Counted from the stretch's first letter, positions 9,001 to 17,272 are shown. The stretch: 30,935 nucleotides of DNA from Bacteriovoracia bacterium (GCA_046570105.1 JBKHVI010000022.1:1-30935), one strand, 5' to 3'. Numbers: made by a program.

Positions 9001-12000
9001 TAATTAAAGAGGAAGTCTCTAGTGCATCTACTCTCGTCGATTGAAAGTTAAATTGTGATCGGCCAGAACCCGCAAGATAAAGACCGCCAATATTGAGTGT
9101 TAAAAAATTAAAAATGATGATCTCGGTATCAAGCTCTAGACCGATGGCATGTCTCATTTTTAATACACTAATCCCATCGACATCTCGCTCTTCACTCCGA
9201 TGGGCAGAAGTGAATGTTCCACCAGGCCCAAAAATAACATCTGCTCGTGATGCTTGTGACATCGCGAGCAGAAGAAATATGAATATGTGGCGAATCATGC
9301 TTAGAGGAGAACGAGGCAGTTTTCTTTAAGGCTGGCGCTATTTAGGATGACAGCATCAATATCTGAAGCAAGTGTTTTAGAATTGGGCACTGATTGATGC
9401 CCGGAGAAGGTTTTTTGTAAGTTTGTGCTTAGTTCATGGTGAGCTTCAGGTAAGCATCCAGAATAAAAAGTAATGACTTTCAAATGCTCACCGTGTCCAC
9501 GGGCGACATCGATCAATACTTCTGTTTCGTTTTGGGCAATATAAATTTCACGATCTTTTTTGAGTTGTTGGAGTTGCGCAAAGGCCGAGCACTCGCCAAA
9601 GCTGGAAGTAGACTGAGTTTGAGATGTCCAAACATTAGATGTGTACTTGGTGTCGACTGTCATGGTTGAGGTTTCTGTCGAGGCGTCCGAAGTAACAGTG
9701 GAAGAACCTTCTTTCTTGGTGCCTTGAGTACAGACATTCCAATAGGCCTCACCCATGCCGCCATAGGTATATTTTTTAAAAAGACCGTTATTTAGCATTG
9801 AGCTGCATTTTTTCGAATCTATGGCAAAGGCTGAGCTAGTAATAAGAGTAGCGATTAAAACCAAATAAATTTTCATAGTGCTCCCGTATGGGCATGAGTA
9901 TTTATAAAAAGCCTATCATAAAATATTATAGTAGATTTAATTAATGGCCAAAGATTTACTTATACTATTCGTCATAATCCTAATGAGTGCTTCGGGCAAC
10001 GCCATTGCTTTTGATATTGAAGCTGAAGCAGCAAAAGAAGAGTGGCTTGGTCGGTTGCTTTTCGTTGATGGCAAAAGCCTCGTTCAAAACCAAGATTTTT
10101 TCCTTTCTCAAAATGGTCATCTTGATGCGCTTCAGGAGCTTCGTGCGACTGTTAAATTAATTAGAAAAGGTGACTTTAGTTTTGCTTGTAAGTTCCCTGG
10201 TCGCTTTGCCTATCTAGCGCCCAAGTTTGGGATCAATCCAGCTTCTATCGCTTGTGAAAATTTTAGACTTTGGCGTGAGAGCTTTGAAGCTGATGGACTA
10301 AGTATTATGTTTGCGAGTCAGTACTTAGAGAACCCGGCCAGCTCGTTTGGACATACCTATCTCAAAATTAATTCCAAAAAGAAGAGCCTCTATCTTAATA
10401 AAGTTATTTCTTTTGCTGCGACTGTTCCAAAAGAAGTTGGGGCGGCGGAGTATGTTTGGAAAGGTCTGATGGGTGGATTCCCTGGGATCTTCAATGAAAG
10501 TCCATTTTACGTTTTATTCCAGGAATACGCCAATATGGAGAGGCGTGATATTTGGGAATACGAACTGAATTTAGATTCAGAAGAAACCTCTCAAATTCTT
10601 GCCATTCTTTTTGAGGTGATCCATTTCGCTAAATTTGATTATCTATTTTTAACTGATAATTGTTCCTCATTGTTAATTAGACTTATTGATATCGTCGCAA
10701 AAAAATTATTCCACGCTTCTTTGCCAACTTATGTCATCCCAATTGAGACGGTTAAAGTCTTGGACAAAAAAGGAATGTTAAAACAAACGATATATCACCC
10801 TTCCATCACCTCACGTATGGTGCAACAGTCTGAAGCCATGAGTGCTGCAGAAGTTCACGACTTTATGATGTACGTCGAAAAAAATCGGCCGCTGTCGCGT
10901 GACTCCACAGCGAAGAGCTTGGATTTAGGACTTGAGTATTTAAATTTTCAAAGACAAAAACATGGGGGTGTTCTCCCTGATAAGAAAAAAAGAGATTTTG
11001 ATCAATACCTCTTTTTGCGTGCTAAAGAGACCAATCTAGCGAGAAAGGTTGAATATAAAGTTCTTGACCCGATAAAAACATCTCATCCACGAAGGTTTTC
11101 ATTAGGTGCGATGGGGGTGAATGATTCTCCAGTAGGTTTTGCAATACAGTATCGCCCCTTGGGTCGTGATTTTTATGATCGTCCCAATGGCTTTGCTAAA
11201 GAGTCTGAGGTTAATTTCTTTAAGACCATGCTCTATCTTGATCCAGCTCAAACCAAAGATTCTTGGTTCACTGTAGATCTCATTGGGATTCGTAAATTCT
11301 CTGATTACAACTCGATAACCAAAGATTTGAGCTGGGGCGCCAATCTTTCAGCGGGTAATCAGATAAGGGAGAAGTGCTTAAGTTGTTATTACTCGGAGCT
11401 CGATTCACATGTCGGAGTTGGAAAGAGTTTGTGGAAAGATAGAATGACTGGTTACGTAGTTTTTCATCCTACTGTGCGGGTAGGTAATATTGCCCATAAA
11501 TATAATTTCCTTCCGCAGGTAGAAGCAGGAATAATAAACAGCTCAGAAAAGTTTGTATTTAAAGTGGCAGCTTTTCACGGTTTAGTTTATGACGGTTACG
11601 ACAAATCTAGTTTCAATAAATCTAAAACGTCCCTGTCTTGGATTATAAGTAACGAATTTTCATTCAATATGGATTATGAACATTTCCTTCATGGAGCTGC
11701 CTGGAACTCTTGGATGAGTGGCTTCTCTTATTATTTCTAATTAAAACCAAATCTCCGTCTGCGCGCCAATCACGCCGGCACTTTTTTGGGTCGGCTGGCC
11801 TGGTAATGTGAGCGTAGATTGTGTGGCAGCGGCGCGATTCCAGTCAAAATAAGAATAATAAAAGCGAATCGAAGGTCTAGTCCAGAATTGACTGGCATCC
11901 GTTGAGGCCTGTAGCGCGAGAGTGTATTTATCCAAATCTTGGCGCGACTGAAATGAACCAGCATTCACTTTTTCAAATCTCGTCAGGCCCACTTCTCCTA

Positions 12001-15000: not shown

Positions 15001-17272
15001 CACAGTGTGGAATTGGCGCCATGGTTTTCCCTAAAACCGGTTGGGCGGCCATGACGTCAAATATGATCTGGGATTTAGGGACGACTGGAACAACTTCATC
15101 TAGTTCGTCTGAGTCTCAGTGTGCAGGACGTGCATCAACTGCGGCCAAATTCATTCACCAAAACTACGCGGTCATTGAAGAAGAAACTGTGGTTGGAGAA
15201 GGGGCGCACATCAAAACGGTGCTCAATATTCTTGACTGCAAAAATAACAGTCATGATAAGATCATCAAGTCACTTCGTACTCAGTATGCTAATGGCGTTG
15301 ATTCTGTCGTTCCATCAGATGAAGCGTATTTTAATAATTTGATGGAAGTTATTGAGAGCGATTACCCTACTCAATGCAAAACTACCTAAAGATTCTATTG
15401 ATGGTTTCTTGTTTTAGGGCTTTTGCCCTAGAACAAGAAGCCATTAACTCTTTAGCTCAAAAAACACAATGGCTCAAACTTCTTCACTACGACTCAAACA
15501 CATCTCGCATCATCAATTCAGATTTCTTTCTTTCGCCAGATGGTCAGCTAAATCCGTTAGGTGAATTACAAGCAACGATTCAAGGCCTAAAGGAAAGTCC
15601 CGCTCTTTCTTGTCGTTTTCCGGCGCGCCGTTTGTGGCTTGAGCAACAAGGTATGCAGTTTGCTCCCTTTACCTGCCCCGAATGGGAGCAATGGACTCGA
15701 GGTAAAACTGTTCGAAGTGTCAGTGTGATTTTTGCAGATGGATTTTTAGGTAATCCAGCTTCTTTTTTTGGCCATCCATTGCTCAAGATAAATTTTATGG
15801 GAGCGGAGAGTCCCTTAATGGAAACGGCGATTAACTACGGGGCCTTTACTCCTCAAGATGTGAATCCTGCGGAGTATGCCATCTTCGGAATTTTTGGTGG
15901 ATATCAGGCCGGCTTTACCACAGCAGAGTTCTACTTTCATCGCTCAAATTACGCTGAGCTTGAGCTGCGTGATATGTGGGAATATGAATTAAAATTATCT
16001 TCCTCTGAACGTGATCTCTTGGTCGCCCATCTTTTTGAAATGATGTCAGCGCGCTTAAAATATTATTTTTTCGGCGATAACTGCGCTTACCGTATGTCCT
16101 ATGCGCTTGAATTGGCGACTGGAAAAAAACTACAAGCGATTATCCCTGTCGCCATTCCTATTTCTTTGTTTCATCGACTGAGTGAAGAAAGTCTGATCTC
16201 AAAACCTCAAAGATGGAAGTCACGGCAAACTCGCTTACGCGAGAACTATCTTGGGTTGTCTGCTGAAGAACGTGATCTTGTGAAACAGTTAGCTGTGGAT
16301 ACGAACACAATGCAAAAAGCACCATTTCTTTCATTAGGGGAAGGGAAACGGGCACATATCATAGAGGTAGCGCTGGATTATGAAGCGTTTATGCTAGCTC
16401 AAGATAATACGTCAGAGCGAATCCAACGAAAAAAACAACTGCTTAGAGCGAGGGCCGCATTGCCCGCTGGACGAGGTAAGAGTCGTGAGATGAATAAGCG
16501 TCCTCCTCATGAATCACAAAAACCAATCTTGACTGGCATGGGTTTTACGAAAAGTGAAAAATGGGGTGATGGTGGGAGCCTTCGAGTTAGGCCAGTCTTT
16601 TACGATTTAATTTCTCCAGATGCTGGTCGCCCTGCCTTATCCAGTTTAAGTGTTTTCGATTTAGAGGCCGATTACTTTCAATCAGAATTCAGAATTAAAA
16701 AGTTCGATGCCATTAGTATTGAAAATTTAAATCGCTCTATAACGGGGCTGCCAGGTGATGGTGGGTGGGCCTGGCGCTTGCGAGTGGGGGCCGATCAATT
16801 AAATCTTGCCTGTCGCGATTGTTTAGCGGCTCGTGCGGAAGCAGGGCTTGGACAAGCGATTGAACTGCATTCTGAGTTTGTTTTTTGGGCGATGCTTGAT
16901 CCACGGTTGCAAAGTAGCGTCGATGGAAGTGGACATTTAAGTTTAAGGCCCCACGCTTCTGTGTTGATTACCTTAAGCAATGATGTCCGTATGCTCGCTT
17001 CGCTTGGACGTCGTTATTATCTTGATCGCAATTTGCCCAGTGAAACTATGAGTAATATCGAGATGCGCCTAGGTTCAAACAAATCTTGGGATATTCGAAT
17101 GGGTTATGAAGTGCATCTAGACCATCGTGCTAGCTTGATGCTCAATTTTTATCAGTGAGAGTGCTTTACTCTGTTAATTGTTTCACTTTTGTCTCATTAC
17201 AACACAAAGCATGATTCTTCATAAACATCTGATATCCTTGCAGGCTCATAGTCATAAGCTATCGCAGCATAG

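Follow-up and report, generated by a model that had tools for sequence, protein, structure and literature searches.

The 30,935-nucleotide contig of a Bacteriovoracia bacterium analyzed here (C22; in full, the window) carries two genes for proteins with the Lnb_N domain, named after a lipoprotein N-acyltransferase of Bacteroides, each beside a gene for a small DUF3015 protein, and the question is what such pairs do in a genome that also encodes the canonical N-acyltransferase Lnt (on C9, 220 bits against a cut-off of 132.9). Since Lnt is kept, lipoprotein N-acylation is not required from these genes. A preliminary description had recognized Lnt and had read the pairs as effector–immunity modules, in which soluble, secreted enzymes are used against prey while DUF3015 protects the producer as a periplasmic inhibitor. 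Its inventory held up in our searches: five genes encode Lnb_N (PF13387), on C32, C45, C22 (two) and C4, all above the Pfam cut-off, and four of them adjoin a DUF3015 gene, two in the window and one each on C32 and C45. The domain architectures were likewise recovered by Pfam, with DUF7844+Lnb_N as the order in the C4 gene and the order given in Table 1 in the two window genes.

Table 1. Coordinates and supporting evidence for the features discussed (positions in the window unless a genome and contig are named)
Feature	Position	Strand	Evidence
DUF3015 protein, 191 aa, short branch with Ser/Thr-rich insert	9301..9876	-	PF11220, 32.7 bits (cut-off 25)
Lnb-type enzyme, 598 aa, DUF7843+Lnb_N+DUF7840	9944..11740	+	Pfam; barrel by homology to the modeled paralogue
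Presumed catalytic His137 codon, 9944 protein	10352..10354	+	Invariant in A1 (40 sequences) and A5 (5 paralogues)
Presumed catalytic Cys240 codon, Asn239 just before, 9944 protein	10661..10663	+	Same alignments (A1, A5)
Alpha/beta-hydrolase (Hydrolase_4), 284 aa	13943..14797	+	Pfam
DUF3015 protein, 157 aa from database-record start	14916..15389	+	Pfam, 44.8 bits; P0121 and 187 homologues
Lnb-type enzyme, 594 aa, DUF7843+Lnb_N+DUF7840	15374..17158	+	Pfam; AlphaFold2 model
Lnb_N, permuted NlpC/P60, in 15374 protein	15686..16138	+	Pfam; fold matches
His134 codon, 15374 protein	15773-15775	+	Invariance in homologues and paralogues
Asn236-Cys237 codons, 15374 protein	16079-16084	+	Invariance in homologues and paralogues
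Predicted 12-stranded outer-membrane beta-barrel (DUF7840), aa 386-594 of 15374 protein	16529..17155	+	DSSP; fold matches
Rhs tip followed by short DUF3015	G000:C106 (twice), G007:C297, G158:C3, G158:C1, G055:C81		

The first pair is divergent, with 67 nt between the DUF3015 and enzyme genes, an arrangement that recurs in G014:C85. In the second, the start of the enzyme gene overlaps the stop of the upstream, same-strand DUF3015 gene by 16 nt, and the longest open reading frame for the latter is 14886..15389 (+); the C32 and C45 pairs lie on the same strand with a gap of 1 nt. The hydrolase gene of the window has an N-terminus, a signal peptide and a Cys, that suggests a lipoprotein. Its homologues adjoin the pair in 13 of the 80 named-genome loci described below; it recurs as a third member of the module, and C32 likewise has a Hydrolase_4 gene, two genes behind the enzyme gene. 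Porins, hydrolases and efflux genes flank the Lnb-type genes.

The relationship to Lnb is clear at the level of the domain and its presumed active site. Lnb_N is recognized at E 1e-34 to 1e-52, at 137.8 and 118.7 bits in the two window proteins (cut-off 22.2) and, in the 9944 protein, at E 3.6e-40 over profile positions 4-173 of 175. That protein consists of a signal peptide, DUF7843, Lnb_N (residues 109-274), a helical linker and the DUF7840 barrel region (residues 376-597). The positions proposed earlier for its conserved residues, H137 and N239-C240, are correct, and these residues, H134 and N236-C237 in the 15374 protein, are invariant not only in the five paralogues but also in 40 homologues. 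The distance of 103 residues between His and Cys is about that between His49 and Cys148 of Lnb (PMC11573676), the equivalence being drawn from spacing rather than from direct alignment. The third residue of the Lnb triad is Asn66; here, at least 90% of the homologues (A1) have Asn at the position of N154, 20 residues past the His, but two of the five paralogues have Ser. The family is nevertheless distinct from Lnb: the NCBIfam equivalog NF051878 scores 18.9 and 20.2 bits against a cut-off of 550, and DUF7843, the helical linker domain and the obligate DUF3015 neighbor are all additional.

Among the Lnb_N paralogues, the 15374 protein was modeled with AlphaFold2 (pLDDT 92.5, pTM 0.88). The model places, after the signal peptide, a helical domain, a permuted NlpC/P60 domain with the Cys-His pair, a helical linker and a barrel in which DSSP assigns 12 strands. 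Residues 110-287 matched TseH (6v98; Z 9.6, rmsd 4.0, 152 aligned), a resemblance shared by Lnb itself (Z 11.6 in PMC11573676), and the same part matched YiiX (2if6, Z 9.0) and 3kw0 (Z 8.6). The barrel matched NanC (Z 14.7), Tsx (14.4), KdgM (14.2), EstA (14.2), NalP (12.4), FapF (12.2), LpxR (11.7) and OMPLA (10.5). DUF7840 is present in four of the five Lnb_N proteins, and the Pfam match together with an aromatic C-terminus suggests the same barrel in the three that were compared by sequence: Phe was the last residue in seven of eight barrel-type proteins checked, and the 9944 protein ends in YYF. In the two window proteins, the reported lack of 19-residue stretches with hydropathy above 1.6 past the N-terminus was reproduced, with one exception at residue 218 of the 9944 protein. 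Lnb, as described in PMC11573676, is an inner-membrane protein with five helices, whereas our search of the window proteins for such a C-terminal anchor found no hydrophobic helix past the signal peptide and a C-terminus that is predicted to form an outer-membrane barrel. The enzymes can thus no longer be called soluble. Given the default topology and the long, conserved turns at the periplasmic end of the barrel, the enzyme domain most likely hangs into the periplasm beneath the outer membrane.

A barrel behind an enzyme domain raises the question of what the barrel is for. Type Va autotransporters such as EstA have the same general plan, a Sec signal, an N-terminal enzyme of lipolytic type and a C-terminal 12-stranded barrel, and the effector reading could be recast on this plan, with the barrel displaying or releasing a lipid-targeting enzyme against prey or competitors and DUF3015 shielding the producer's periplasm in transit. 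The domain order and the barrel matches, including AIDA-I and AaaA (both Z 12.1) besides EstA and NalP, agree with it. The enzyme fold is a different one, however; no Pfam autotransporter beta-domain was found in the Lnb-type proteins at E≤0.01; and the alignments of the model to EstA, NalP, Hbp and AIDA-I all begin at strand 1 (residues 382-383), where DSSP assigns a 24-residue coil (362-385) ahead of the strand and a pore helix is neither aligned nor predicted. A channel was also considered: a FapF-like pore for the export of DUF3015 or a lipid product, either cargo being processed by the enzyme domain. FapF likewise combines a periplasmic N-terminal part with a 12-stranded barrel, and its chains filled nine of the 10 best Foldseek rows (E 2.6e-6 to 1.5e-5), but by Z score the barrel is at least as close to plain porins and to enzyme barrels, and DUF3015, with four conserved Cys and probable disulfides, is ill-suited to a narrow pore; we consider such export highly improbable. 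The proteins may also be compared with OMPLA, LpxR and PagP, with which they would share the outer-membrane location and the acyl chains of envelope lipids as target. In those enzymes the barrel is the catalyst, whereas the proteins here carry a distinct Cys-His domain on a barrel resembling those of LpxR and OMPLA.

In the DUF3015 protein at 14916..15389, a signal peptide is followed by a conserved N-part that is Gly-rich and hydrophobic, then by a Ser/Thr linker and a helical bundle (alignment A4); in its model residues 69-157 form helices, pLDDT per 10-residue block being 74-91 and mostly 80-91, and a fold search gave no recognizable match (best Z 6.3). The mature N-part is both the most conserved segment, with C31, G32, G34 and N49 invariant, and the least foldable, residues 23-68 having pLDDT below 50. 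A signal peptide is also present in the 9301..9876 protein, together with four conserved Cys (alignment A2) that probably form two disulfides, and the closest relatives of this protein are the short DUF3015 proteins linked to Rhs genes and those of genome G008. Pfam scores are 132 bits on C32, 130 on C45, 45-48 for the C106 copies and 23.6-26.3 for the C83 copies, one of which (23.6) is just under the cut-off of 25. Tandem duplicates of DUF3015 occur as well.

A conserved but poorly foldable N-part could mark a substrate. In E. coli, the Lnt-like AatD acylates the small secreted protein Aap, and DUF3015 might similarly receive a fatty acid on its N-terminal segment and thereby anchored to the membrane, with the Rhs-linked members being immunity proteins that use the same route. 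The tight co-inheritance of enzyme and DUF3015 agrees with this, as does the fact that Lnt already serves the ordinary lipoproteins of the genome. Lnb_N enzymes pass acyl chains to protein amines (PMC11573676). DUF3015 has no lipobox, however, its first Cys is not N-terminal, and the N-part motif is absent from the short branch, so that we regard lipidation of DUF3015 as unlikely.

To see how general the pair is, we examined its linkage and distribution. In 41 related genomes, 58 of 67 DUF3015 matches lie within 3 kb of an Lnb_N match and 49 of the 50 best Lnb_N matches have a DUF3015 match within that distance; in 51 of the 58 adjacent cases the DUF3015 gene is upstream on the same strand. 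Of 80 loci taken from named genomes, 75 have the barrel enzyme adjoining DUF3015, the other five being cut by contig ends, and the record titles of these loci span Bdellovibrionota, Gamma-, Beta- and Alphaproteobacteria, Verrucomicrobia and Margulisiibacteriota. For the 75 pairs, the distance matrices of enzyme and DUF3015 are correlated at r 0.82, a value reached in none of 999 permutations. The barrel-enzyme family comprises 3,691 clusters at 50% identity (E≤1e-30), and the best 150 of these all span nearly the whole profile. The pair was found in all 11 genomes of the genus searched, this one included, and in other genomes of the taxonomic family DUF3015 was matched in 21 of 24 and Lnb_N in 22 of 24. 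Its flanking genes stay the same among Alishewanella/Alkalimonas/Rheinheimera and, separately, among Pseudoalteromonas. Many nonpredatory bacteria keep the pair, most often only once per genome; the count is one or two in five nonpredators, compared with four in this genome. The distribution is thus not the patchy, strain-variable one expected of polymorphic-toxin pairs.

The families nearest to the enzyme domain do include toxins. According to PMC12994826, Tox-Act1 is a sister clade of DUF4105 and a phospholipase cleaving PG and PE, and DUF4105 itself occurs in lipid-metabolism contexts. The T6SS effectors Tox-Act1 and TseH share with the proteins here the permuted NlpC/P60 fold class, the His/Cys pair and a small adjacent protective gene, the putative protector here being DUF3015. 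Their partner is a membrane-associated immunity protein, whereas the Lnb-type genes here lie outside any T6SS, PAAR, VgrG or Rhs fusion or neighborhood, are conserved rather than patchy, and encode a barrel anchor of their own. A search of the Lnb-type proteins for toxin-trafficking or delivery domains (Rhs, PAAR, VgrG, CdiA and others) found none, the domains present being DUF7843/DUF7844, Lnb_N and DUF7840, and a search for the T6SS sheath gene TssC in the genome, which is 88% complete, gave no match.

A link between DUF3015 and toxins was seen on the other side of the pair. Short DUF3015 genes stand directly behind Rhs tips in four genomes of three genera (Table 1), overlapping the Rhs gene by 4 nt on C106 and in G158:C3. 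One C106 tip matches Phospholip_A2_4 (27.1 bits, cut-off 23.9), other tips are strongly hydrophobic (19-residue stretches of hydropathy 1.4-1.9), and two of the Rhs N-termini bear Sec or lipoprotein signals. The position is that of immunity genes in Rhs/RhsI and Tle/Tli systems, and the signal peptides of short DUF3015 proteins are as expected against lipid toxins acting in the periplasm; the difference is that DUF3015 mainly partners a conserved outer-membrane enzyme. The same short branch, to which 9301..9876 belongs, is found behind Lnb-type genes too, in G008 and in G305. Of the two contigs for which such Rhs neighbors had been reported, C106 bears the claim out, with two tips each followed by a DUF3015-like gene, while on C83 the two DUF3015-like genes begin 358 nt from the contig end and the open frame ahead of them has neither an Rhs repeat nor similarity to Rhs tips. 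The tips are mutually unrelated past the end of the Rhs core, which is hard to square with a single family of specific inhibitors; in G055 the Rhs gene and DUF3015 are separated by a 128-aa gene that could itself be the true immunity gene there; and many short DUF3015 genes occur in unrelated contexts.

These observations divide the effector–immunity reading. The occurrence of the short branch both behind Rhs tips and beside Lnb-type enzymes lends support to DUF3015 as a protective or inhibitory periplasmic partner. The other half, soluble secreted effectors for prey, is not supported, in view of the barrel, the breadth of the pair among nonpredators and the missing trafficking domains. The genus-wide presence of the pair also argues against effectors, as does the higher conservation of DUF3015 than of the enzyme, although the loci were chosen via conserved DUF3015 peptides, which favors this outcome. 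Even the autotransporter-like version, for which the Tox-Act1 relationship (PMC12994826), the Rhs-linked relatives, the tandem duplicates and the fourfold presence in a predator could all be cited, is in our view quite unlikely: the pair is kept with conserved flanks by many free-living nonpredators, and the small gene comes first in most loci.

We tentatively favor, at somewhat less than an even chance, an outer-membrane acyl-enzyme that acts on envelope lipids or lipoproteins and is restrained or regulated by periplasmic DUF3015. The window would then hold two of the four copies, genome-wide, of a conserved envelope module made up of two genes. The first gene product would be exported by Sec and inserted into the outer membrane by its 12-stranded barrel, with a Cys-His acyl-enzyme domain of Lnb_N type between helical domains; the invariant Cys would form a thioester, and fatty-acyl chains of outer-membrane phospholipids or lipoproteins would be moved or removed. 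The putative lipoprotein esterase beside many copies of the module may clear the lyso-lipid by-product. The second product, which is small, periplasmic and probably held by two disulfides, may contact the enzyme through the variable segment between its first and second Cys; we infer its binding and inhibition, as well as the activity and membrane side of the enzyme, while the architecture, the conserved residues, the linkage of the genes, their distribution and the Rhs neighborhoods are observed. A sister DUF3015 branch would have been co-opted for periplasmic immunity to Rhs toxins that are exported by Sec and whose tips target membranes or lipids.

Our literature search found no paper on the barrel-type members or on a substrate or activity of any of them; the enzyme/DUF3015 gene pair is unstudied yet common across many bacteria. 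The new points are the Rhs link of DUF3015 and the fourfold expansion of the module, which is a widespread, housekeeping-type system rather than a predator-specific weapon, multiplied in this predator lineage.

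The 131-contig assembly of the source genome (88% complete, 44.6% GC) contains eight DUF3015 matches and five Lnb_N genes, the number given in the preliminary description, together with the Lnt gene that it had also listed (220 bits). Two of the enzyme genes lie in the window, each beside a DUF3015 gene (see table), and in the second pair the DUF3015 stop overlaps the enzyme start at 15374 by 16 nt. On each of contigs C32 and C45, a DUF3015 gene ends one base ahead of a DUF7843+Lnb_N+DUF7840 gene on the same strand, and the fifth gene, on C4, encodes DUF7844+Lnb_N and is without DUF3015. 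Between the window pairs lie genes for a LamB-type porin, a small outer-membrane (OMP) beta-barrel protein and an alpha/beta-hydrolase (Hydrolase_4), the last immediately preceding pair 2. Both pairs are surrounded by the LamB-family porin gene (E 2e-74) and by small OMP beta-barrel genes, one of 217 aa above the Pfam cut-off and one of 219 aa under it (window 11741-13811 and 8639-9298), so that the region is rich in outer-membrane proteins. A scan of 8500-17500 for promoters and terminators gave counts not above those in shuffled sequence (14 vs. 18.0 and 8 vs. 8.1).

Features of the window and of related loci in the source genome
Feature	Position	Strand	Evidence or remark
Zinc-ribbon protein gene (270 aa) and Rce1-like CAAX protease gene (255 aa)	6410-7979		11-nt overlap between the two
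DUF938 methyltransferase	8017-8634		After the CAAX protease gene
Pair 1 DUF3015, 191 aa	9301..9876	-	Pfam 32.7 bits (cut-off 25); divergent from 9944..11740
Pair 1 enzyme, 598 aa, DUF7843 + Lnb_N + DUF7840	9944..11740	+	Lnb_N E 3.6e-40, profile 4-173 of 175
Pair 2 DUF3015, 157 aa from the start in its record P0121	14886..15389	+	ORF listing, Pfam
Pair 2 enzyme, 594 aa, DUF7843 + Lnb_N + DUF7840	15374..17158	+	ORF listing, Pfam
Catalase-peroxidase, KatG-type	17348-19585		Peroxidase domain in 2 stretches, E 4e-75; directly 3' of second Lnb-type gene
C32 pair and following genes	C32:15618-19828 (locus L014:4618-8828)		Same strand after pair: D-Ala-D-Ala dipeptidase (Peptidase_M15, E 1.5e-40), Hydrolase_4 alpha/beta-hydrolase
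Fifth Lnb_N paralogue and two small genes	C4:99052-101731 (locus L016:6052-8731)		DUF7844 + Lnb_N, no barrel; small genes translationally coupled by 4-nt overlaps
Main Rhs gene, 2702 aa	C27:20353-29116		Sec signal peptide at start
Rhs array	C106:1-3786 (locus L018)		Short low-GC contig (39.6%)

We examined the architecture of the enzyme by modelling the 15374 protein with AlphaFold2 from 40 homologues (pLDDT 92.5, pTM 0.88). In the model, a signal peptide and helices extending to residue 107 precede an alpha/beta domain (113-281); a second helical stretch (284-361) and a coil of 24 residues then lead to twelve beta-strands (386-593). In an exhaustive structural comparison, residues 385-594 matched 12-stranded outer-membrane barrels, namely NanC (Z 14.7, rmsd 3.5, 181 aligned), Tsx (Z 14.4), KdgM and the EstA barrel (both Z 14.2), NalP (Z 12.4), FapF (Z 12.2), LpxR (Z 11.7) and OMPLA (Z 10.5), and residues 110-287 matched permuted NlpC/P60 enzymes (TseH, Z 9.6; YiiX, Z 9.0; 3kw0, Z 8.6). 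Foldseek was in agreement (FapF, 2.6e-6), and a profile search of PDB sequences with the alignment of the 40 homologues gave chance matches only (E >= 0.19). Of eight barrel-type proteins whose C-termini were checked, seven have a final Phe, which usually serves as the signal for insertion into the outer membrane, and the other terminates in FYQ. The enzymes had been described as soluble, which the barrel and the terminal Phe contradict: the hydropathy scan behind that claim was accurate for the two window proteins but is blind to beta-barrels. In the other three DUF7840 paralogues the barrel is probable from their DUF7840 matches, the 15374 protein being the one modelled.

The presumed catalytic residues reported previously (H137 and N239-C240) were placed correctly, and the His and the Asn-Cys pair are invariant in the five paralogues and the 40 homologues. 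The pair presumably resembles the 'NC' motif of LRAT-type enzymes. Equating the Asn beside the Cys with Asn66 of Lnb was dropped as unproven, as Asn66 lies 17 residues C-terminal of the His in Lnb according to passages of PMC11573676. Since the C-terminus of the barrel must be periplasmic, strand 1 begins in the periplasm; in the model, the longest and best-conserved barrel connections, those of strands 2-3 and 4-5 with the nearly invariant R406, P407, D411 and L425, lie on the same side, and no helix precedes strand 1, the autotransporter alignments all beginning at the first strand. On these three grounds a periplasmic orientation of the enzyme appears more likely.

The association of the enzyme with DUF3015 was close in the genomes searched. 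Among 41 related genomes, 58 of 67 DUF3015 matches were within 3 kb of an Lnb_N match, with DUF3015 on the same strand upstream in 51, on the same strand downstream in 5 and divergent in 2. Conversely, 49 of the 50 best-scoring Lnb_N matches had a DUF3015 neighbour, as had 3 of the 31 weaker ones, all three being broken fragments in one genome (G017). A scan of named genomes found 275 DUF3015 relatives, from which 80 loci were kept; a full-length barrel-type gene adjoins DUF3015 on the same strand in 75, and the other 5 are cut by contig ends. The gene order is reversed in six of the named-genome loci (three Vibrio, two Enterovibrio and Marinagarivorans). Tandem DUF3015 pairs before a single enzyme gene were seen at two named-genome loci (L036 and L067), at the first of which two complete modules face each other, and also at G004:C306, G008:C7, G015:C28 and G032:C41. 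We regard it as secure that the module consists of a Cys-His acyl-enzyme anchored in the outer membrane and an obligate, small partner in the periplasm.

Carriers, by record title, include Bacteriovoracaceae, Bdellovibrionaceae, Pseudoalteromonas, Alishewanella, Vibrio, Alteromonas, Colwellia, Marinobacterium, Gallionella, Nitrosomonadales, Burkholderiales, Kordiimonadaceae, Verrucomicrobiaceae and Margulisiibacteriota. When 1.84 billion representatives were searched with a profile, 3,691 clusters matched at E<=1e-30, and nearly the whole profile was covered in all of the best 150 of these. Five non-predatory genomes have 1, 2, 1, 1 and 1 full-length copies, compared with four in the source genome. 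It is also secure that the module is widespread, vertically kept and multiplied in this predator lineage. The alternative that the enzymes are weapons against prey, delivered as autotransporters, is disfavoured by this distribution, by the conservation of the module and by the apparent absence of a pore helix in the model. Distances among enzymes and among their partners correlate over 75 pairs (r 0.82; 0 of 999 permutations as high), which is not proof of contact because co-inherited neighbours are expected to correlate. With a mean identity of 41%, DUF3015 is more conserved than the enzyme (33%), a comparison biased by the selection of loci via conserved DUF3015 peptides. Homologues of the window alpha/beta-hydrolase flank the pair in 13 of the 80 loci, in several classes, and no other recurrent neighbours were found beyond close relatives. 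On C32, a similar alpha/beta-hydrolase is encoded two genes downstream of the enzyme, and the Peptidase_M15 and Hydrolase_4 genes that follow this pair associate the module with further enzymes that act on the envelope.

Downstream of the C4 paralogue, the products of the two small genes are secreted proteins (145 and 133 aa) that share 36% identity and match no Pfam family. A profile comparison ruled them out as DUF3015 (probability 0.9%), and the C4 genes may form another type of set in which an enzyme is joined by small secreted partners.

A signal peptide and four conserved Cys are present in every one of the eight DUF3015 copies of the source genome. The mature N-terminal part of the common long form (consensus CGIGAMIF..TGWAA..SNIIWDLGTT) is the most conserved segment yet has pLDDT < 50, and residues 69-157 are predicted to form a helical bundle (pLDDT 74-91 per 10-residue block, mostly 80-91). 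A fold search with the model found no clear solved fold, the best match being the SRP54 N-domain (Z 6.3); the T6SS immunity protein Rap1a, at Z 5.0, was within noise. Searching the ESM Atlas returned DUF3015 clusters alone, and literature searches gave an incidental table entry for DUF3015 and unrelated work for PF11220.

A second context of DUF3015 was found in Rhs loci. The C-terminal tip of the first Rhs gene on C106 matches Phospholip_A2_4 (27.1 bits; Pfam cut-off 23.9) and PLA2 chains in the PDB (7e-5), and a 152-aa DUF3015-like gene overlaps this tip by 4 nt. In the second Rhs end, a transposase-like ORF and a masked stretch interrupt the sequence, after which come the remainder of the tip, a 130-aa DUF3015-like gene and the start of another Rhs body. 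Each tip of this array has its own DUF3015-like gene, in line with the preliminary description, which had placed the family directly behind Rhs tips on C106; it had claimed the same for C83, where we saw two DUF3015-like genes at the contig end and nothing Rhs-like before them. A profile of the short DUF3015 branch, run over 301 genomes of the phylum with contexts taken for the best matches, added a 2196-aa Rhs followed by two short DUF3015 genes (G007), a 2760-aa Rhs (RHS_repeat 1.3e-61) with a short DUF3015 gene overlapping by 4 nt (G158:C3), a 467-aa YD-repeat fragment followed by one (G158:C1) and a 2474-aa Rhs separated from one by a 128-aa ORF (G055). With the source genome, the combination occurs in four genomes of three genera. 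The end of the Rhs core is the sole part common to the DUF3015-linked tips; those of G007, G158 and G055 matched no Pfam family even at E 1 to 5, and their 19-residue hydropathy stretches reach 1.86-1.89 (G055 and G007) and 1.42-1.49 (two G158 tips).

The Rhs toxins of the source genome seem to be Sec-dependent, given the signal peptide of the C27 gene and the lack of a detectable T6SS sheath gene (VipB/TssC) in the 88%-complete assembly; in G158, the Rhs protein has a lipoprotein signal at its N-terminus. Such toxins would pass through the periplasm of the producer, a compartment in which a secreted immunity protein would be of use. The C27 gene itself is followed by a 227-aa lipoprotein-like gene, not DUF3015. 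The short branch is not limited to Rhs: the window 9301..9876 protein is a member, two copies stand behind an Lnb-type gene in G008:C10 and in G305:C15, and further copies sit in unrelated contexts. When named genomes were first scanned with the alignment of the short branch, 44 pattern matches were obtained and 0 confirmed; a metagenome scan gave 19 weak relatives, with an Lnb-type gene marked in 4 loci (L120, L122, L123 and L124). In the remaining loci the contigs are short and the contexts unrelated (di-haem oxidoreductase, DUF4301, response regulator), with no Rhs seen.

That Lnb is the second type of lipoprotein N-acyltransferase was recognised only in 2024, and its toxin sister clade, Tox-Act1, in 2024-2026. 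According to passages of PMC11573676, Lnb moves acyl chains onto lipoproteins and has five helices, in whose place the barrel-type enzymes have a barrel; Lnb orthology was ruled out by scores of 19-20 bits against the 550-bit equivalog cut-off. Passages of PMC12994826 report that Tox-Act1 cleaves PG and PE. Given these two activities and the lipoprotein-like esterase encoded beside many copies of the module, we favour for the barrel-type enzyme a putative activity as acyltransferase or phospholipase A, with phospholipids or lipoproteins of the outer membrane as substrates. Our searches for DUF7840, DUF7843, DUF7844, PF25222 and PF13387 found no literature, nor was any found on the barrel enzyme family or the function of its partner; S3 Table of PMC12994826, on DUF4105 homologues, might list barrel-type members.

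For DUF3015, the main alternative is that it serves as the acyl acceptor of the enzyme. On account of the Rhs loci we favour a protective role resembling that of an inhibitor, in which the variable Cys1-Cys2 segment would set specificity. Extending this role, DUF3015 might be a general periplasmic guard against membrane-lipid-attacking enzymes and toxins, a proposal that we consider unlikely. A single scaffold with a varied Cys1-Cys2 segment would restrain the cell's own outer-membrane acyl-enzyme, and in a sister branch it would serve to neutralise Sec-exported Rhs toxins whose tips are phospholipase-A2-like or insert into membranes. If so, the barrel enzyme would be intrinsically dangerous to membranes, a latent outer-membrane phospholipase or acyltransferase, and the predator's four copies could be freed from inhibition to remodel or breach envelopes in predation. 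The Rhs context offers a first experimental handle on the role of DUF3015, as protection against lipid- or membrane-targeting activities. Here the Lnb catalytic domain is carried by an outer-membrane barrel, in a family that comprises about 3,700 sequence clusters from several phyla and is always paired with one small partner. Should the enzyme transfer acyl chains at the outer membrane, it would constitute a step in the homeostasis of envelope lipids or lipoproteins that has so far gone unrecognised.
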